DNA of 64,000 bases from an uncultured bacterium (GTDB lineage Bacteria; Bacillota_I; Bacilli_A; RF39; UBA660). Position numbers and translations under genes: made by a program. The notes beneath the pieces are model-generated. The model was not told where the DNA came from. It searched no databases and worked only from the letters and a program-made list of their open reading frames with translations. Shown piece by piece: positions 3,221 to 17,589 of the stretch. The stretch spans positions 956 through 64,955 of the forward strand of contig CASFOW010000014.1 of assembly GCA_949296705.1 (NCBI GenBank). The letters run 5' to 3'. Position 1 is the first letter of the stretch; each line of letters opens with the position of its first letter.

Positions 3221-4230
3221 AAGATGTAAAAGACATATATGTATTTGCCATAGAATCTAGTTGTGATGAAACTAGTTGTTCAATTGTAAAAAATGGAAAA
3301 GAAGAGATTGCTACCGTTGTACTTTCTCAGATCGATATCCATAAAGATTTTGGAGGGGTAGTTCCTGAAATCGCTAGTCGCCATCATGTTAAGAACATTA
3401 CCATAGTAATCGAAGAATGTTTAACTAAAGCCAATATGACAATGGAAGAAATGGATGCTATTGCGGTAACTTATGGACCAGGTCTTATTGGTTCATTATT
3501 AGTAGGAGTGGAAGCTGCCAAAACACTAGCTTACTTATATCAAAAACCATTAATACCTGTTCATCATATTTCAGGACATATTTACGCAAACAATTTAAAA
3601 GAAGAATTAAAGTTTCCTTTAATCGCTCTAGTCGTAAGTGGTGGCCATACAGAATTGATTTACATGAAAGATCATTATTGCTTTGAAAAAATAGGTGGCA
3701 CGTTAGATGATGCCGTAGGCGAGTGTTATGATAAAGTAGCAAGAATCATCGATGTACCATATCCCGGTGGCCCAACTATTGATAAATGGGCTCAATTGGG
3801 TGAAGACACATATCATCTACCGCTCCCATTAAATGATGATTCCTATAACTTTAGTTTTAGTGGCTTAAAAAGTGCCGTAATTAATTTAGTCCATAATGAA
3901 AAACAACGTAATCAACCAATTAGAAAGAAAGATTTAGCTACTTCTTTTCAAAATACAGTAGTGAAAATCATCAGTAAAAAAACAATGAAAGCCTTAAAAG
4001 ATTACCAAGTAAAAAATTTAATTATTGCTGGAGGAGTAGCTGCTAATCATGGAATAAGAGAAACATTAACCACCCTTTGTGAACAAGAAAATATTACTTG
4101 TAGTATACCCGATATAAAATACTGTACCGATAATGCTGCAATGATTGCTGCATCAGGTTACTATGCCTATTGCTTAGGAAGAGTAGGAGATTTAGACTTA
4201 AATCCAAAATCCAGCATAATATTAAAGTAA
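3217..4230 (+). CDS. tsaD: tRNA N6-adenosine threonylcarbamoyltransferase TsaD
   Basis: [18 protein letters not shown] and VSGGHTEL are Kae1/TsaD metal-binding motifs. Confidence 0.9.
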
Positions 4231-10120: not shown

Positions 10121-10156
10121 GATGATTAAGATTTCAGTTTTTAATCATCTTTTTTT
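10121..10156. terminator. Bidirectional hairpin between convergent genes
   Basis: Stem gatgattaa / ttaatcatc, followed by TTTTTTT. It overlaps the stop of the minus-strand permease. Confidence 0.45.
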
Positions 10157-10928
10157 CTATGCAGGAAATAATATAATACATGATACAAGAGACAATACCT
10201 AAGATAACTACTGAAGTGATAACTAGATTAATATTAAATACTTGAGAACCATACATAATTAAATAACCCAATCCCTCTTTAGAAACCAATAATTCTCCCA
10301 TAATTACCCCGATTAAAGACATACTAATATTAATTTTAAGACAATTTATGATTGTATTTTTATTACTTGGAACAATTAATTTATAGAATATCTGATATTT
10401 TTTCGCATTTAACGTCTGTAATAGGCGAACATAATAAGAATCAGTAGAGATGAATCCATTATAGATGTTAATGATAGTAATAAAAGTAGAAATGAGTAGT
10501 GCCATAAAAATAATTGAATTGGTATTAGCGCCTACCCAAATAATAATAAGGGGACCTAAAGCAACTTTAGGTAAAGAATTCATGACCGTCAAATAGGGAT
10601 CAACAATTTTAGCAATCGTTTTATTCCACCAAAGAATAGAGGCAACGACAAAGCCGATGATTAAGCTAATCCCAAAACTAACTAGCGTTTCATACACTGT
10701 AATCCAAACATGATTAAGTAAATTATTCTGTTGCCATAAAGAATAGAAGGTATCTATTACCTCAGAAGGTGAACTAGATAGAAAAGTATTAATCCAACCC
10801 ATTCGTGCACTAATTTCCCAAATAACTAAGAAGAAAACAATAATGGCAATTTGAAAAAAAAGTACGATAAATTTATTCTGCTTTCTTTTTCGTAAAAATT
10901 GTTTATGCTCTTCACTATAAGTAAACAT
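10134..10928 (-). CDS. ABC transporter permease (NitT/TauT/SsuC family)
   Basis: The protein has 6 TM helices and the binding-protein-dependent permease pattern. RBS GGAGGG. It overlaps the upstream ATPase gene. Confidence 0.75.
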   Translation of the reverse strand: MFTYSEEHKQFLRKRKQNKFIVLFFQIAIIVFFLVIWEISARMGWINTFLSSSPSEVIDTFYSLWQQNNLLNHVWITVYETLVSFGISLIIGFVVASILWWNKTIAKIVDPYLTVMNSLPKVALGPLIIIWVGANTNSIIFMALLISTFITIINIYNGFISTDSYYVRLLQTLNAKKYQIFYKLIVPSNKNTIINCLKINISMSLIGVIMGELLVSKEGLGYLIMYGSQVFNINLVITSVVILGIVSCIMYYIISCIEKKMIKN

Positions 10929-11664
10929 CTAAATCCCTCCAAATCTGATCATAATAATGATTAAATTCTTTGCACTTTCGATTTTGAATCGGAGTAGACT
11001 TGTCAGTTAAATGAATATCATAGATCTTTTTAACCCCAGCTGGTCGCTTACTTAATACCACCACTCGATCAGACATGGAAATGGCTTCCGCTAAATCGTG
11101 AGTAACTAATATAGCTGTCTTGCCTTCATTTTTAATAATTTGGTACACATCATCGGATAACGATAATCGAGATAAAGAATCCAGTGCAGAAAACGGTTCA
11201 TCCAATAAAAGAATATCTGGATCAATTGCTAAGGTTCTAATTAAAGCTACTCGCTGTCTCATACCTCCCGATAATGAATCAGGATATTTATCAATAAATT
11301 CTCCTAAACCATAAGTATTTAGTAAATCAATAACACGTTGTTTAGTTTTTTCATTTAAAGTATGACTAATTTCTAAACCAATTAAACAGTTTTCTAAAAT
11401 CGTACGCCAAGGAAATAGGGCATCTTTTTGTAACATGTATCCCATACGGATATTTTCTTTATGAAAAGTAATTTTTCCTGCTGACTTTTCTTCAAGATTA
11501 GATAGGATAGAAAGTAAACTAGTTTTTCCACATCCAGAAGGTCCAACGATTGCGACAAGTTCTTTATCGTAAATATCAAGAGAGATATTATCGATGGCGA
11601 CAATTTCTCCGCTTGTATCATGGTAGATTTTTTTTACTTTATCGATTGTAAGAATTTTTTTCAT
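10915..11664 (-). CDS. ABC transporter ATP-binding protein (SsuB/TauB family)
   Basis: Walker A GPSGCGKTS, signature LSGGMRQRVAL, Walker B ILLLDEPFSALD. Confidence 0.85.
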   Translation of the reverse strand: MKKILTIDKVKKIYHDTSGEIVAIDNISLDIYDKELVAIVGPSGCGKTSLLSILSNLEEKSAGKITFHKENIRMGYMLQKDALFPWRTILENCLIGLEISHTLNEKTKQRVIDLLNTYGLGEFIDKYPDSLSGGMRQRVALIRTLAIDPDILLLDEPFSALDSLSRLSLSDDVYQIIKNEGKTAILVTHDLAEAISMSDRVVVLSKRPAGVKKIYDIHLTDKSTPIQNRKCKEFNHYYDQIWRDLDVYL

Positions 11665-11665
11665 A

Positions 11666-12364
11666 CTAATCCCTAGTATAAATTAAATCTTCATATTTTA
11701 CCGTACTATCTAGCTCTCCTGCTGCTTTCATGATATCTTGTAAATGATAGAATGAATCTTCCTTGAAATCTGTAGTAGTAGGCCATGCATCAATACTACG
11801 ATATCTAGCAATCACTTCTACTAAATCATTCATAGAAGTATCTGGAAAGAATTCAATAATTGCATTAGCTACTTCTTCATCGTTATGATCGTGTACATAA
11901 TCTAGCCCTTTTTGGATAGCTCTTGTAAATTTCTCAATGATCTCTGGATTTTCTTCAATGTAGCTAATTCTAGCACTATAAGAAGTGTATGGAACAACCC
12001 CGCCAAGTTCACCAATTGAGGCTACTACATAACCAAATCCTTGATTTTCTACTTGAGTCGCATTAGGTTCAAATAGGGTAACAAAGTCTCCCTGACCCCC
12101 TATAAAAGCACCAGACATTGCCGCAAAGGCAACACTTGTATCAATATCTAAATCATTAACTGGATCGATTCCATTCTGTCGAAGTGCCCATTCAAAAGTC
12201 ATTTCTGGCATTCCGCCTTTTCTTCCCCCAATAACACTTTTTCCCCGTAAGTCATCAAGAGTAAAGTCTTCATATTTTTCCCTTGAGACTAAGAAAGAAC
12301 CATCTTTTTGGGTTAATTGAGCAAATGTCTTCAAATAATCTTTTTCGCCGGCATTATAAACATA
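11666..12364 (-). pseudogene. 3' fragment of an NMT1/SsuA-like substrate-binding protein gene, interrupted by the island 1 insertion
   Basis: The sequence is homologous to the C-terminal two-thirds of NMT1/THI5-like SBPs, but there is no signal peptide. The reading frame runs upstream to a TAG at 12377-12379, created at the insertion junction. Confidence 0.7.
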
Positions 12365-12586
12365 GCTAACTGCTCCCTAAGGGATAGTAGTAAAATAATC
12401 ATTATATTCAAATTATAGTTATTAGTATATTCAAAAGACAAAGAAACATTTTGATTATCTCTAATTTCAATTATCTTGCCATTATTCACGCTGATTATCT
12501 CCCAAAAATAAAGTAAATGATAACTAGCGGAATAAGCTATATACTTTTTATTCATAAATTGTTAAGATGAACTTGAGGTGTTTATC

Positions 12587-13570
12587 ATGAACCAAGAAAA
12601 AATGGGATTATTTATTAGTGAACTTAGAAAAGAATATAAGCTTACACAAAAGGAACTTGCTGATAAATTAGGAATATTAGATACTTCAATTTCTAAATGG
12701 GAACGTGGAATTAACGCACCAGATATTTCTTATTTAACAGAACTTTCTAAAATATTTCATGTAACAGTACAAGAACTTTTAAATGGTGAAAGAAACTTTA
12801 AGAAAAAAGAAATAGATATTCATCATCATAGTAAGGTATTAGAAGTAGCTAATCTATCGAAGTCTTTTGGTAAAAGAAAAGTCCTAGATAATATTAACTT
12901 AACCATTTATGAAGGAGATATTATCGGCTTAATTGGTCCAAATGGTGCTGGAAAAACTACCTTGATAAAAACAATTCTTCGTCTTTACTACTACGATAAA
13001 GGTAGTGTAGAAATCTGTGGATATGATACAAAAAAACAATTAGAGCAAGCACTATCTAAAGTAGGGGCAATTATCGAAAAACCAGACATGTATGATCAAC
13101 TTACCGGACGAAAAAATTTAAAGATAACAGAACTTCTAAATAATATTCATAATCAAAAATATGTTGAGGAAATGATTGAATTTGTAGGATTAAAAACCAG
13201 AATCAATGATAAAGTAAAGAAATATTCGTTAGGAATGAAACAACGTTTAGCGATAGCCAATGCTTTGATAAAAAAGCCTAAATTATTAATTTTAGATGAA
13301 CCGACAAACGGTTTAGACCCAAAAGGAATAAGAGAATTAAGACAAATGTTAAAAACAATTAGCCAAGAACAAAATATGAGTATCTTAATTAGTAGTCATA
13401 TTTTATCAGAGGTAGAAAATATTTGTGATCGAGTAGTAATTATTGACCAAGGAAGGTTAGTAAAAGAGTTCGGAATCGAAGAAGTAAAATATAAAAACAT
13501 TAGTTTGGAAGAAGAGTATTTTTCTGAAACCGAAAGCTTTGAAAATGGTGAAGAACATGAAAATAATTAA
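12587..13570 (+). CDS. XRE-family HTH domain fused to an ABC transporter ATP-binding domain
   Basis: The N-terminal roughly 65 aa form an HTH_3 domain (LTQKELADKLGILDTSISKWERG). This is followed by Walker A GPNGAGKTT, signature YSLGMKQRLAIA and Walker B LLILDEPTNGLD. GAGGTG RBS, ATG at 12587. Confidence 0.75.
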   Translation: MNQEKMGLFISELRKEYKLTQKELADKLGILDTSISKWERGINAPDISYLTELSKIFHVTVQELLNGERNFKKKEIDIHHHSKVLEVANLSKSFGKRKVLDNINLTIYEGDIIGLIGPNGAGKTTLIKTILRLYYYDKGSVEICGYDTKKQLEQALSKVGAIIEKPDMYDQLTGRKNLKITELLNNIHNQKYVEEMIEFVGLKTRINDKVKKYSLGMKQRLAIANALIKKPKLLILDEPTNGLDPKGIRELRQMLKTISQEQNMSILISSHILSEVENICDRVVIIDQGRLVKEFGIEEVKYKNISLEEEYFSETESFENGEEHENN

Positions 13571-15167
13571 TTTAGTTAAAAGTGAATTTATCAAAAACTA
13601 CAATGTAAAAAGATGGGCAATTATTTCTATAGTATTAATCCTTGCCTCTCTTTTCCTCATTCATTATACAGATAGTCTTCTGGAAGAATACACAACATAC
13701 GATGATTCAGGATTAAAAACAAGTATCGATTCTTTTGAAAATTCCCTTAAAAATTTAGAAAAAAAAGAAGCTAAAACATTAAATGATGAATATGAAATAT
13801 TTTTTGGTAGAAACTATATTGACTATATGAGTATACTACTAAATAAAAAGATAGATCATCGAAATGATTGGAAGTTTGATTTCATCAATGAACAAGTATT
13901 ACCAATTTTATCAGAAAATTTCTTGATTGAAAAAATAGTTAATGAACAAAGATATGAAGAGGTTTTAGAATTTTGTGATTACAAAGATAAAAATCCTAGT
14001 GTATATGGACTACAAATATGTCAAAATATTATATCAACTAATACAAATAATGGTAGAAATTTGACTAAACTAGAAGAACTCTATAAAAATAATCTACAAA
14101 CAATAACAGATTATCAACAACTACTAAAGGAAAATAAATACTATTTATATCTACAGTATCAAGTAGATCATGGACAAATCGAAAACGATAAAATTGTTCA
14201 AACTTTACTAAACAAGAAAGTAGAAACAAATACTGATTTTTTAGGATTAAATTACTTACAATATCAACGTCTAAAAGAAAATACTAAAATAGAAATTATG
14301 GATGAAGAAGAGTATAATCAAACACCTCCAGGTGATTATGCTTCTTATCAAGAATATGTGTCTTATAATACAAAATTAAAAAATGATGCGATAAAAAATA
14401 GAGAAATTTTATTATACAGCACAGAACATGAAATTAAACATGATATTTCGTATAATCTACTAGATGGCGTAACAGAAGAAATTAGATATATGAATACCAA
14501 AATAAAAGTAAATCAAGTATTTCATTTGTCAGTTGTAGTGATGATTATCGTAGCGATTCTAAATAGTGGAATCATTAGCCGTGAACATAGTAAAGGAACG
14601 ATAAAAAACATTATTACAACACCGGTTCAAAGATGGAAAATATTACTAAGTAAATTTATTTATTTACTATTAGATACTTATTTCATATGGTTATTAGGTC
14701 TGATAATAATTAGTTTACTTGCTGGTATTCAATATGGCTTTAATGATCTACTAGAACCCAAATTAGTTTATATAGGTGGTGAGGTTAAAGCAGTAAATTA
14801 CTATCTCTATATTTTAAAAGATATCTTCCTAGCTAGTATTCCACTCATTTGTTTCTTAAGTATTTTGTTTTTCCTATCTACAGTAACACTAAATACTTCT
14901 TTAACAGTCGGAATAATCTCTTCTTTATCTGTAGTATCTTTCTTTCTTTGGATTATGATGATAACAAATAGCTTTCCCAATATAGTATATACCCCGTTCT
15001 GGTATTTAGATTGTGGTTATATTTTAAGTAATGCTGAAATCTATGTGGATTCATTAAGAAATATTTCTTACAATTTAAAAACCGGTATTATTAGCTCTTT
15101 TGTGATTAGTATCATCTTATATATCTTTACTAATATTATTTATAGTAAACGAGACATTAAAAACTAG
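13557..15167 (+). CDS. ABC-2-type permease with a large extracytoplasmic domain
   Basis: The start MKIINLVKSEFIK is typical of ABC-2 permeases. An N-terminal TM helix and a roughly 300-aa loop are followed by 5 C-terminal TM helices. The gene overlaps the ATPase gene. Confidence 0.65.
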   Translation: MKIINLVKSEFIKNYNVKRWAIISIVLILASLFLIHYTDSLLEEYTTYDDSGLKTSIDSFENSLKNLEKKEAKTLNDEYEIFFGRNYIDYMSILLNKKIDHRNDWKFDFINEQVLPILSENFLIEKIVNEQRYEEVLEFCDYKDKNPSVYGLQICQNIISTNTNNGRNLTKLEELYKNNLQTITDYQQLLKENKYYLYLQYQVDHGQIENDKIVQTLLNKKVETNTDFLGLNYLQYQRLKENTKIEIMDEEEYNQTPPGDYASYQEYVSYNTKLKNDAIKNREILLYSTEHEIKHDISYNLLDGVTEEIRYMNTKIKVNQVFHLSVVVMIIVAILNSGIISREHSKGTIKNIITTPVQRWKILLSKFIYLLLDTYFIWLLGLIIISLLAGIQYGFNDLLEPKLVYIGGEVKAVNYYLYILKDIFLASIPLICFLSILFFLSTVTLNTSLTVGIISSLSVVSFFLWIMMITNSFPNIVYTPFWYLDCGYILSNAEIYVDSLRNISYNLKTGIISSFVISIILYIFTNIIYSKRDIKN

Positions 15168-15220
15168 AAAAAATAAATTTAAAAAGGACTATCAGTTATA
15201 GGATAATCCTAAGAAAATAG

Positions 15221-15264
15221 GCTAAATATCAATAGTAATTAACCAGATATTTAGCTATTTTTTC
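15221..15264 (+). terminator. Putative terminator
   Basis: Stem gctaaatatc / gatatttagc with a 15-nt loop, followed by TATTTTTTC. Confidence 0.45.
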
Positions 15265-15340
15265 TTAGTTATTTTTCTCTATCGGAAAACATAAAAGTAT
15301 CATAATCTCATAAAATTTTATGAGGTGAAAAAAGAAATAT

Positions 15341-15592
15341 ATGATTGATATTAAAGATTTGATTTTATCAGATAACCATCTGAATTTACTCCTAGAAAAG
15401 CACTTATCTAACCAACTATATGAATATAATCTTCTTTCCTTTTCTATTTATGAAAAGATAAAAGAAGAAATTAATCATGAAATATTAGAAATAAAACAAA
15501 ATTTTAAAAAGATAGAACCAGATTTCTTGTTATCAACACCACCAAGAGTAAAATTATTTCTCGATAGAAAAGAGAATTTTAATGATGAATGA
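15341..15592 (+). CDS. Small protein translationally coupled to the serine recombinase (candidate accessory or directionality factor)
   Basis: 83 aa with a GAGGTG RBS. Its 3' end overlaps the recombinase start by 11 nt. Confidence 0.45.
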   Translation: MIDIKDLILSDNHLNLLLEKHLSNQLYEYNLLSFSIYEKIKEEINHEILEIKQNFKKIEPDFLLSTPPRVKLFLDRKENFNDE

Positions 15593-17267
15593 AGAAGGGA
15601 AAAGTTCACTAGTAGAAGAAATAAGAAGACAAATTTCCACAGGAAAATCAATCTACGATTTAGCCTTACGAGTTACTTATTATGCTAGAGTTTCAAGTGA
15701 TAGTGAAGAACAAGCAACATCAGTAGTCAACCAAGTAGATTACTTTTGTCATTTAATTCAAGCTAATTCGAATTGGACTTTCACAGGTGGTTATATTGAC
15801 GAAGGAATTAGTGGAAAAAGTGTAAATAAAAGGGAAGCATTTTTAAAAATGATAGATGATGCTCAAAAAGATCAATTTGATTTAATTTTAACCAAAAGTG
15901 TACCTAGATTTGCAAGAAATACCTTAGATAGTATTCGATATACAGAAGAATTATTAAAATATGGGGTTGGGGTTTATTTTTTAAATGATAATATTAATAC
16001 CTTTTTACCAGACTCAGAGTTTCGGTTAACCCTAATGGCTAGTATTGCTCAGGACGATTTGAGAAAACTATCAGAAAACGTGAAGTTTGGATTAAGACAA
16101 TCCATAAAAAGAGGGGTAGTGTTAGGAAGTAATAATATCTATGGCTATATAAAAGATAAAGGTAGCTTAAAAATAATTGAAAAAGAAGCCACTATAGTTA
16201 AAAAAATGTTCATTTTATACGATAGTTATTCTAGTTTAAAAAAAACTTCATTACTATTAGAAAAATTAGGTTATTTTAATCGTAAAGGAAAACCTTTTGA
16301 TACAACAACAATTAGAAGAATCTTGATGAATCCAAAGTATAAAGGCTATTATTGCGGTAATAAAACAACTGTCTTGGATTATAAATCTGGAATAACTAAA
16401 CAGCTTACTAAAGATAAATGGGTAGTTTATAAAGACAATAAAAAAATTCCTCCTATTGTTTCTGAAGAACTATGGGATAGAGTAAATCATGAATTAGCGA
16501 AAAAACAAAATAATTATCATAGTAAAAAGAGGATAAATACGGTAGGTAATTATGCATACAGCGGAAAACTAATTTGTAAGGAACATAAAATAGCCTATAC
16601 TAGATCAGGAAGGAAAAAGAATCGCCAGAACGATTATCGCTATTGGTCATGTAGGCTATATAAAAGAGGAGTTAAGTACTGTAGTAGTCCGCTACTAAAA
16701 GAATCTAATCTTGATATATGGTTTCAGTATATAATCAGTAAATTTTTTCCGGACAAAGAAATGGTAAAAGAACGATTGATTAATAGAATAAAAAAATTCA
16801 ATACGGATGAAGAATTTACTCAAAAACAAGCCAGTATAGCGAAGAAACAGCTAAATTTAGAAACGCAAAAAGAAAAATTATTTGAACTAGTCAGTAATAA
16901 CTATATCACTAACGAAGAATTTAGACAAAAAAATGAAATTCTGAATCAGAAACTCTATAATCTGAAAACAGAACAACAGACTTTAGAAGCAAAAGCACCT
17001 GTAGAAGGAAAAAACAAACAGCTAATTCTTCAACTAGATAGAGAACTAGATATTAAATATCATTTAGCTGATTATATAGATTTATTGGTGGACTGTATTT
17101 ATGTTTCCAAAGTAGATAATAATCGCCACTTAGTAAGACTAGAAATAGTGTTAAAAACAGGATTAAATATTCTGATAGATTATGATCAATTCGCTATGAA
17201 ATATAAGGAAAATTGGCAACTAAATTCCGATGAAAATTTTGTTAGATTTTTCTATTACAAATCATAA
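15582..17267 (+). CDS. Large serine recombinase
   Basis: The N-terminal resolvase domain contains the YYARVSSD catalytic-serine motif. It is followed by a recombinase domain and a Cys-containing zinc-ribbon region (CKEHK…CRLYKRGVKYC), then a C-terminal coiled coil. Confidence 0.85.
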   Translation: MMNEEGKSSLVEEIRRQISTGKSIYDLALRVTYYARVSSDSEEQATSVVNQVDYFCHLIQANSNWTFTGGYIDEGISGKSVNKREAFLKMIDDAQKDQFDLILTKSVPRFARNTLDSIRYTEELLKYGVGVYFLNDNINTFLPDSEFRLTLMASIAQDDLRKLSENVKFGLRQSIKRGVVLGSNNIYGYIKDKGSLKIIEKEATIVKKMFILYDSYSSLKKTSLLLEKLGYFNRKGKPFDTTTIRRILMNPKYKGYYCGNKTTVLDYKSGITKQLTKDKWVVYKDNKKIPPIVSEELWDRVNHELAKKQNNYHSKKRINTVGNYAYSGKLICKEHKIAYTRSGRKKNRQNDYRYWSCRLYKRGVKYCSSPLLKESNLDIWFQYIISKFFPDKEMVKERLINRIKKFNTDEEFTQKQASIAKKQLNLETQKEKLFELVSNNYITNEEFRQKNEILNQKLYNLKTEQQTLEAKAPVEGKNKQLILQLDRELDIKYHLADYIDLLVDCIYVSKVDNNRHLVRLEIVLKTGLNILIDYDQFAMKYKENWQLNSDENFVRFFYYKS

Positions 17268-17289
17268 ATTTCCTTCAACCGACCGTAAC

Positions 17290-17589
17290 CTAAATACATG
17301 CTTCACTACCAGAAAAACCAATTTGAACATCTCCTGATAAGACAGCAGCTGTGACCTTATCTGCTCCAGGTGTCAGTAATAACTCAATCTCTAATCCTTC
17401 TTCTTCAAAAAAACCTTGACTGATCGCTATATATTGTGGAGCATAAAAAATCGTGTGCGCAACTTCCGCAACCGTAATTTTTTCTAAAGAAGAATCCTTT
17501 TTCTCATTTTTATTTAAGTCCAAAAAGAACAAACTAGCAAGTGCAAGAACTATAATAAAAATGAGTAAAACATATAAAAATTTTCTCAT
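17290..17589 (-). pseudogene. 5' fragment (99 codons) of the NMT1/SsuA-like SBP gene: signal peptide plus N-terminal domain
   Basis: AAGGAGG RBS and a signal peptide (LLIFIIVLALASLFF). It matches the conserved SBP N-terminal region (FYAPQYIAISQGFFEEEGL…SGDVQIGFSGSEA). The stop TAG is created at the junction. Confidence 0.7.

Follow-up and report, generated by a model that had tools for sequence, protein, structure and literature searches.

Which DNA does a DNA-binding domain read when it is built into the ATPase subunit of a membrane transporter, and what does it do there? The question is raised by two overlapping genes in a stretch of 64,000 nucleotides (the window; positions 956 to 64,955 of contig CASFOW010000014.1, assembly GCA_949296705.1) from an uncultured bacterium of the RF39 lineage. 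The first gene joins a helix-turn-helix (HTH) domain of the XRE/Cro-C1 type to an ATP-binding cassette (ABC) nucleotide-binding domain; the second encodes an ABC-2 permease. An earlier reading of the same DNA, the original prediction, had proposed that this fusion couples transport to transcription, either as autoregulation of the operon or as an immunity or resistance module. We find a palindromic operator at a fixed position before this operon and its homologues, covarying with the recognition helix of the fused domain, and take this as strong in-silico support for binding of the HTH to the promoter of its own operon. The operon would then encode an exporter of the BcrAB/LanFEG type that carries a BcrR-like HTH on its ATPase and regulates its own two genes, a reading we consider probable but by no means secure.

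The operator and the fused recognition helix

The DNA upstream of 17 non-redundant fusion genes was aligned; three more loci (L099, L100 and L101) were fetched later. Every one of the 17 loci has a 7-1-7 palindrome whose centre precedes the start codon by 53-57 nt, in most cases by 55 nt. At least five of the seven pairs are complementary in 16 of these sites, against a background of 3.3% per position elsewhere in the same regions, and the single-base centre rules out an RNA hairpin. The palindrome of the window (Table 1) lies in the arm at 12365-12586, where the original prediction had thought palindromic operators worth looking for. Between the window and the sister-species locus L009 (96-98% identical) the intergenic DNA diverges, and identity returns a few bases upstream of the palindrome. 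Across 98 loci (an estimated 1.2 Mb or so), the class A pattern defined below, TGACNNAWTAAGTCA, occurs at this position and nowhere else. No second copy was found in the window with up to three mismatches allowed, so no regulon beyond the operon is evident. The upstream regions of two other loci, L033 and L036 (described below), contain inverted repeats at other spacings only and are not counted as evidence.

The operators fall into three classes, which pair one-to-one with three classes of recognition helix. Class A, to which the window belongs, combines a TGACTTAaTAAGTCA-like palindrome (TGAC..GTCA-type) with the helix ..D(T/N/S)S[IV]SKWERGINAPD; class B combines TATACCAaTGGTATA with ..DKAVSKWENGRC.PD, and class C TCTACTCaAAGTAGA with ..DKAVSKWETGRGIPD. 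The helix classes differ in the first positions of helix 3 and in the residue after Trp-Glu; by analogy with the 434 and P22 repressors, all of these would contact bases. The ATPase of the window is closest to that of the class B locus L011 (81% identity), yet the two HTH domains are only 61% identical and the window operator is of class A; in the ATPase tree, classes A and B are interleaved. The pairing is thus independent of ATPase relatedness, suggesting that HTH and operator have been exchanged together. The three later loci were obtained via their permease, after the rule had been set. L099 and L100, with class B helices, have the operator TCTACCAATGGTATA and L101, with a class C helix, has TCTACTCAAAGTAGA, in each case centred at -55 and of the class predicted from the HTH. 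Fixed position, covariation and correct out-of-sample predictions together argue that the fused HTH binds its own promoter, and the autoregulation raised in the original prediction is now backed directly by sequence.

The protein that carries this HTH is 327 residues long (the original prediction had counted 328) and is encoded in one unbroken open reading frame (ORF). Pfam profiles find both domains in it, as first described: HTH_3 (PF01381) at residues 10-64 with 52.5 bits (cut-off 23, E = 5e-14) and ABC_tran (PF00005) at residues 100-241 with 118 bits (cut-off 25, E = 5e-34). The Shine-Dalgarno sequence GAGGTG ends 7 nt before the ATG. The GTG at 12578, used as the start by some gene callers, was rejected because it sits within the Shine-Dalgarno sequence and all homologues begin with MNQEK or MDQEK. 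Between residue 1 and Leu126 there is no in-frame ATG, GTG or TTG, and therefore the ATPase is not expressible on its own.

In the AlphaFold2 model, the HTH has a five-helix fold (residues 3-16, 21-28, 32-39, 47-57 and 61-66), with the recognition helix around DTSISKWERG (residues 32-41). Neither the Pfam scan nor the model shows a transmembrane helix in the fusion protein. Walker A, signature, Walker B and H-loop are unchanged across 33 homologues; the linker is conserved on a par with these catalytic motifs, its residues Gly67, Glu68, Arg69, Phe71, Lys72, Lys73 and Lys74 (GER.FKKK) being invariant in the alignment of homologues. A sequence search of solved structures gave matches to the ATPase region only, starting mostly at residues 76-99, and none that spans HTH and ATPase.

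The operator is also covered by a 74-residue ORF on the minus strand (12331-12555), which runs from inside the mobile element described below across its left junction. Several public contigs have it annotated as a gene; it matches no family, its region is not conserved in L009, and it is probably not a gene.

Table 1. Features of the operon and of the element that carries it, in window numbering.
Feature	Coordinates	Strand	Details
attL TA crossover core	12363..12364	.	From the empty-site comparison with L098; element begins at 12365
15-bp 7-1-7 palindromic operator TAGCGGAaTAAGCTA	12525..12539	+	Centre 12532, 55 nt before the ATG
Putative extended -10 element TGtTAAGAT	12560..12568	+	Operator centre 31 nt upstream of hexamer start
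Shine-Dalgarno GAGGTG of fusion gene	12575..12580	+	Present in nearly all loci, 6-8 nt past the -10 box
HTH-ABC ATPase fusion gene	12587..13570	+	327 residues; ATG 12587, stop 13568-13570, unbroken ORF
XRE/Cro-C1 HTH_3 domain	12614..12778	+	Residues 10-64; Pfam PF01381
Linker GERNFKKKEIDIHHHS	12785..12832	+	Residues 67-82, 16 residues
ABC nucleotide-binding domain	12833..13543	+	Residues 83-319
Walker A GPNGAGKTT	12935-12961	+	Residues 117-125
E-loop Glu164 (..GAIIEKPDMY..)	13076-13078	+	Invariant in the family
ABC signature YSLGMKQR	13223-13246	+	Residues 213-220
Walker B LLILDEP	13283-13303	+	Residues 233-239
H-loop SSH	13391-13399	+	Residues 269-271
ABC-2 permease gene	13557..15167	+	536 residues; ATG 13557; Pfam ABC2_membrane_2/_4
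Permease transmembrane helix 1	about 13605-13667	+	AlphaFold2; preceded by an N-terminal interfacial helix
All-helical extracytoplasmic domain	about 13668-14492	+	AlphaFold2; residues about 38-312, about 275 residues, inserted after transmembrane helix 1
Five further permease transmembrane helices	about 14493-15149	+	AlphaFold2
Two hairpins, T-run after the second; probable terminator of the two-gene operon	15185..15268	+	Minimum free energy, inverted repeat
83-residue ORF	15341..15592	+	Overlaps recombinase start; 75% identical in L009
Large serine recombinase	15582..17267	+	Pfam Resolvase, Recombinase and Zn_ribbon_recom; PHROG 95 integrase, E = 4.5e-102
attR TA crossover core	17291..17292	.	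From the empty-site comparison; element ends at 17292

Activation or repression of the operon

Downstream of the palindrome, 30-31 nt from its centre, 16 of the 17 loci have a TAnnnT hexamer, often in the form TGnTAnnAT. Taking this hexamer as the -10 box would put the operator at about -50 to -35, with its centre at about -42.5. In the -35 position stand hexamers (TATACT, ATTGTT, GATAAA, CATGAA and others) that are unlike TTGACA, and the TG extension is missing in about half of the promoters. A consensus promoter scan gave 35 hits where 24 were expected in this AT-rich DNA and is uninformative, hence the reliance on conservation of the -10 box across species.

By analogy, the layout would be that of a class II activator-dependent promoter, or of lambda cI at OR2. 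The latter protein, acting on PRM, is also of the HTH superfamily and binds a palindrome as a dimer at about -42, abutting a weak -35 region; the likeness is one of position only. An operator at about -42.5 combined with poor -35 boxes favours activation, and the rigid spacing between operator and -10 box fits a need for phasing with RNA polymerase. Judged from these promoter sequences, and with moderate confidence, binding of the HTH would activate transcription. Two points tell against this: the predicted transcription start coincides with the Shine-Dalgarno sequence or immediately precedes it, an unusual arrangement, and a site at -50 to -35 could equally serve a repressor.

It is indeed possible, if rather doubtful, that the fusion protein represses its own promoter through the same architecture and the same operator, either homeostatically, by way of surplus ATPase that is not on the permease, or with repression relieved upon engagement of the transporter. 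Many XRE/Cro-C1 proteins are repressors, as are, by annotation, most of the PHROG matches of this HTH, and the operator abuts or overlaps the -35 position. An alternative promoter, ATGATA-17-TATACT (12517-12545), would put the operator in its spacer, but is not conserved in the other loci, unlike the downstream -10 box. The -10 box and start site lie outside the operator, and promoters with such poor -35 hexamers, half of them without TGn, seem too weak to need repression. Furthermore, the closest characterised HTH, that of BcrR, belongs to an activator.

Kinship with BcrR-BcrAB and LanFEG transporters

When the N-terminal 138 residues of the fusion protein were searched against 72,556 plasmids with tblastn, the best composite matches were adjacent bcrR and bcrA genes of Enterococcus. 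The HTH of the window is 47% identical to residues 7-65 of BcrR (59 residues, E = 1e-13), both domains ending in ELL(N/S)GE. With BcrA, the ATPase shares 45% identity over 221 residues (E = 3e-63) and a Glu at the Q-loop position. The permease matches the same two Pfam families as BcrB, with which its N-terminus and its region of transmembrane helices 2-3 can both be aligned (31% identity over 86 residues, E = 5e-7, for the latter).

Among characterised systems, the bacitracin resistance module BcrR-BcrABD of E. faecalis is the closest. There, BcrR serves as a one-component regulator in the membrane, sensing bacitracin and activating bcrAB; how a protein in that place does so is stated to be unknown (PMC3968067). 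BcrR is encoded apart from the ATPase, in its own transcription unit, and has four transmembrane helices of its own, whereas the HTH of the window is joined by a 16-residue linker to the ATPase; in both systems the regulator would be held at the membrane, here through ATPase and permease. The bcrA promoter also has inverted repeats of a related TGAC..GTCA flavour, CTGACACGATAAGTGTCGG and GCTGACATCTATTGTGTCAGC, upstream of an ABC operon, but there are two of them and they lie further upstream (at an estimated -64 and -97 or so) than the single palindrome of the window at about -42.5.

A second set of relatives is formed by the lantibiotic immunity transporters LanFEG (NisFEG, NukFEG and MutFEG), which share the ABC-2 fold. 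Their hallmark is the E-loop, a Glu in place of the Gln of the Q-loop (bioRxiv 10.1101/2025.10.09.681468). Glu164 occupies this position throughout the family and aligns with the Glu of BcrA. The best NCBIfam match of the ATPase is to the lantibiotic-protection ATPase TIGR03740, at 222.6 bits (cut-off 309.75). LanFEG differs in having two permeases of about 250 residues, LanE and LanG, where the window has a single one of 536 residues, and in lying within lantibiotic gene clusters, whereas the element of the window holds no biosynthesis genes. The match of the permease to the MutG profile of NCBIfam reaches only E = 0.008. LanFEG transporters are regulated by separate LanRK two-component systems. 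The kinship with BcrR, BcrA and BcrB and the E-loop Glu support the immunity or resistance module that had been offered as an alternative to autoregulation.

The permease gene overlaps the fusion gene, as the original prediction had noted; the overlap is 14 nt. ABC2_membrane_2 matches residues 5-533 of the permease and ABC2_membrane_4 its C-terminal half; the AlphaFold2 model, from an alignment of 53 sequences, has a mean predicted local distance difference test score (pLDDT) of 87 and a predicted template modelling score of 0.85. The extracytoplasmic insertion, previously put at roughly 300 residues, comes to about 275. In Foldseek, the membrane domain resembles those of NosY, PmtD, Wzm and ABCA transporters, weakly (E = 0.04). 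Compared over the same pairs of loci, leaving aside the near-identical L009, sequence change is much faster in the permease (27-47% identity) than in the ATPase (52-77%), and most of it falls in the extracytoplasmic domain, which fits a ligand-facing surface. Behind the permease gene, the region with the two hairpins has a minimum free energy of -23 kcal/mol (z = -3.7) and an inverted repeat at 15214-15262, and is the probable terminator of the operon.

In the loci compared, the partnership with this permease is strict in both directions. Directly behind each fusion gene lies a permease gene of the same family (500-560 residues, 27-88% identity), and two distant permease homologues (42% and 39% identity) each have a gene with HTH_3 and ABC_tran domains upstream. 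This bears on the suggestion that the HTH-ATPase is mainly a soluble ATP-dependent transcription factor, or a defence-type ABC ATPase, linked to the permease incidentally. Generic matches to AAA_21/AbiEii and to mad3, AriA and GajA in PADLOC point that way, but these matches are partial and of a kind common to the ABC fold; the ATPase shares 45% identity with BcrA and 45-58% with plain ABC-2 ATPases, the genes overlap, and the permease has no match to a defence system in PADLOC. We therefore regard the suggestion as very unlikely. A defence role was set aside, since nothing beyond generic ABC-fold and HTH matches came out of the PADLOC and PHROG scans.

Exporters of the BcrAB/LanFEG type shield Firmicutes from peptide antibiotics. 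If the operon encodes a self-regulating one, it might work as follows. Two fusion subunits, bound to a permease dimer, would present two HTH domains, each on its 16-residue linker, to the palindrome; a BcrR-like regulator would in this way be anchored via ATPase and permease rather than by a membrane segment of its own. As one product of the operon is a polytopic membrane protein, the promoter could stay close to the membrane. At about -42.5, the pair of HTH domains would activate its own operon in the manner of a class II activator or of lambda cI at OR2, and engagement of substrate or the ATPase cycle would raise synthesis of the transporter, by analogy with BcrR and with flux sensing of the Bce type. 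A single polypeptide would be sensor, pump engine and regulator. For the substrate, comparison with the known relatives leaves a peptide antibiotic or another envelope-active compound about evenly balanced against anything else.

ToxR, TcpP, CadC and BcrR (PMC10269533) have DNA-binding domains that reach a nearby promoter from the cytoplasmic side of the membrane. Those regulators have a transmembrane segment of their own, whereas the fusion protein would be tethered only through the interface between ATPase and permease; ABC ATPase fusions are not mentioned in that survey of transmembrane transcription regulators. A similar concept is that of BceAB-BceRS of Bacillus subtilis, where the transporter serves as the sensor for transcription of its own genes. 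Flux sensing, in which the activity of BceAB sets the transcription of its genes, was reportedly set out by Piepenbreier, Fritz and Gebhard in 2017 (cited in PMC10710835). BceAB is a transporter of the MacB/FtsX type that works with a separate histidine kinase and response regulator, whereas the window system has no kinase and has its DNA-binding domain on the ATPase. More tentatively, and against our own leaning, the fusion might be a kinase-free flux sensor made of a single protein, the DNA-binding domain reading the ATPase cycle of the exporter directly. Closure of the two ATPase subunits, driven by ATP and substrate, would position the two HTH domains on the palindrome at -42.5 and turn the promoter on; the promoter would be brought near the membrane by co-translational insertion of the permease, and swapping of HTH/operator cassettes between paralogues would insulate their circuits.

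Several observations weigh against a self-regulating exporter of the BcrAB/LanFEG type. Residues 71-80 of the linker have low pLDDT in the AlphaFold2 model and are predicted to be flexible, so the path of a signal from ATPase conformation to HTH is not obvious and regulation could be constitutive. The operator of the window is among the weakest of the palindromes, with five of seven pairs and strict complementarity only in the outer TAGC/GCTA. BcrB has about 250 residues and lacks the 275-residue extracytoplasmic domain of the window permease, for which Foldseek found no structural match. The Bcr operon includes uppP/bcrD, of which there is none in the element of the window; no bacteriocin genes accompany the module; and against LanF-type and all other named ATPase families, NCBIfam scores are below cut-off.

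How such a fusion may have arisen is suggested by a locus of the same lineage, L036 (8001-10291). It encodes an unfused XRE-HTH protein of 201 residues, which shares its N-terminus (MNQEKIGKFI...) with the fusion protein, with two transmembrane helices and a C-terminal zinc ribbon, 10 nt upstream of genes for an ABC-2 ATPase (35% identical to that of the window) and a 263-residue permease. The arrangement is ancestral-looking, although the protein is a different one from the fusion. On these sequences, the simplest history would begin with a BcrR-like regulator, which shed its anchor and became fused to an ATPase that the permease holds at the membrane. A further HTH_3-ABC fusion, in Petralouisia muris (L033, 3649-6040), has 365 residues, an ATPase of the MacB/LolD type (28% identity) and a linker of about 60 residues, and is followed by a 440-residue FtsX-type permease; upstream, at 3554-3587, are the two 8-bp arms of an inverted repeat, 18 nt apart. 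Its family in Lachnospiraceae, with more than 120 clusters whose identity is at least 87%, bears no annotation other than 'ATP-binding cassette domain-containing protein'. By its sequence, it is an event independent of the window family.

No description of a fusion of an HTH or XRE domain to an ABC ATPase was found in the full-text literature searched, reviews included. Parts and logic are already known from BcrR/BcrAB, LanFEG and membrane-tethered regulators; what is new is the fusion, the single operator at about -42.5 with its three covarying specificity classes, and the helical extracytoplasmic domain. The locus touches two open questions, how peptide-antibiotic resistance transporters report their activity and how membrane-held regulators such as BcrR (PMC3968067) activate transcription. 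A system in which to dissect or re-engineer transport-coupled transcription, for instance as a biosensor, could hardly be smaller: there are two genes, one 15-bp operator and three natural classes of specificity. It also suggests that a regulator can shed its own anchor and borrow that of a transporter, a route taken at least twice, in the window family and in the MacB-type family of Lachnospiraceae. Should the substrate be an antimicrobial peptide, the module would be a self-contained, self-regulating resistance cassette, found on two kinds of mobile element in gut bacteria.

The mobile element and the spread of the fusion

The operon is carried on an element of 4,928 bp (12365-17292), bounded by TA crossover cores and containing only the fusion gene, the permease gene, the 83-residue ORF and a large serine recombinase gene, which ends 24 nt from the right junction. 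A gapped DNA pattern search found the empty site (...AAACA[TA]AATACATGC...) in the metagenome contig L098, where the interrupted gene is intact: the uninterrupted site reads ...CATTATAAACA[TA]AATACATGCTTC... and encodes ...SGSEACIYVYNAGEKDY.... In the window, the element splits a minus-strand gene for a substrate-binding protein of the NMT1 family into an N-terminal part (17290-17589) and a C-terminal part (11666-12334). The element is present in all eight contigs whose neighbouring ATPase is identical, and also in the species representative L009. Its excision might restore the binding-protein gene, which would make it an excisable 'intervening element'.

The description of the module as recombinase-mobilised therefore holds for the window and its sister species, given the TA core and the empty site, but not for most homologues. 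About 17 other species have the module in an unremarkable chromosomal context, without a recombinase in the flanks that were fetched, which makes it mobile cargo here and not mobile as a property of the family. That the HTH might be the element's own regulator, a phage-repressor-like protein controlling recombinase or excision and fused to a cargo gene, is extremely unlikely. The module does lie on a serine-recombinase element here and beside a relaxase gene in L101, but the only operator in the window is before the fusion gene, with none near the 83-residue ORF or the recombinase; between the operon and the recombinase unit there is a terminator-like structure; and the species without a recombinase nearby also have the fused module with its operator.

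The 83-residue ORF has no match in Pfam, PHROG or PADLOC. It is a candidate directionality factor or element regulator, not a part of the transporter, and a perfect 18-bp palindrome, CTCATAAAATTTTATGAG, at 15307-15324, over its ribosome-binding region, is a candidate operator for it. The split binding protein belongs to an ABC importer, whose ATPase (10915-11664) and permease (10134-10928) genes adjoin; both halves are intact ORFs with 95-98% amino acid identity in L009, as against only 87% for the recombinase. In L101 (172-5557), a contig of 5.7 kb, a class C fusion gene and its permease gene lie between MobC/NikA-like and relaxase genes, a second kind of mobile element with the module. In L024 (6302-8059 and 7977-8849), from another species, a different, phage-like element with a serine recombinase of 585 residues has entered the fusion gene; the frame of the fusion resumes directly after the recognition helix (..SKWERG|INAPD..), and at this end the copy is short of its first 38 residues.

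Among 5.8 billion proteins searched, more than 120 clusters (at 90% identity) are 70-100% identical to the query, every one with both domains. GTDB was scanned with one genome for each species, and the locus ORFs were then compared by BLAST; full-length fusions occurred in about 19 species at 51-98% identity, all of them uncultured gut metagenome-assembled genomes labelled Bacilli, Tenericutes or Erysipelotrichaceae; hundreds of independent assemblies contain the fusion. Public annotations are generic ('XRE family transcriptional regulator', 'ABC-2 type transport system ATP-binding protein', 'hypothetical protein'). Among 1.84 billion representatives at 50% identity, only one of the 150 best hits (P0241, 62% identity) aligns from residue 1 and spans both HTH and ATPase. 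The others are plain ABC-2 ATPases, mostly of 240-350 residues, or longer multi-domain ABC proteins, aligning from about residue 83 with up to 58% identity. The partner permease family numbers 158 clusters in total, and calling the architecture uncommon was apt. The original prediction had allowed for a wrong start, or for separate genes joined here by a frameshift; homologues carry the fusion too, and the start has no alternative. An artefact of start, frameshift or assembly is scarcely credible, since the ORF is continuous, the Shine-Dalgarno sequence is at the right distance, no internal start precedes residue 126 and the linker is invariant across some 19 species, and nothing was found in its favour beyond two frameshifted loci, L012 and L027, which indicate that decay can occur.

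Those two fusion genes (L012, 1506-2500; L027, 8001-8972) are probably decaying. At L005 (10971-14172), two tandem permease paralogues follow the fusion gene, which suggests a heterodimer. Genomes that carry the module encode SpoIVA (L099/L100, 7882-9404), so at least some hosts of the family are spore formers, which might matter in case the element is excised under developmental control.

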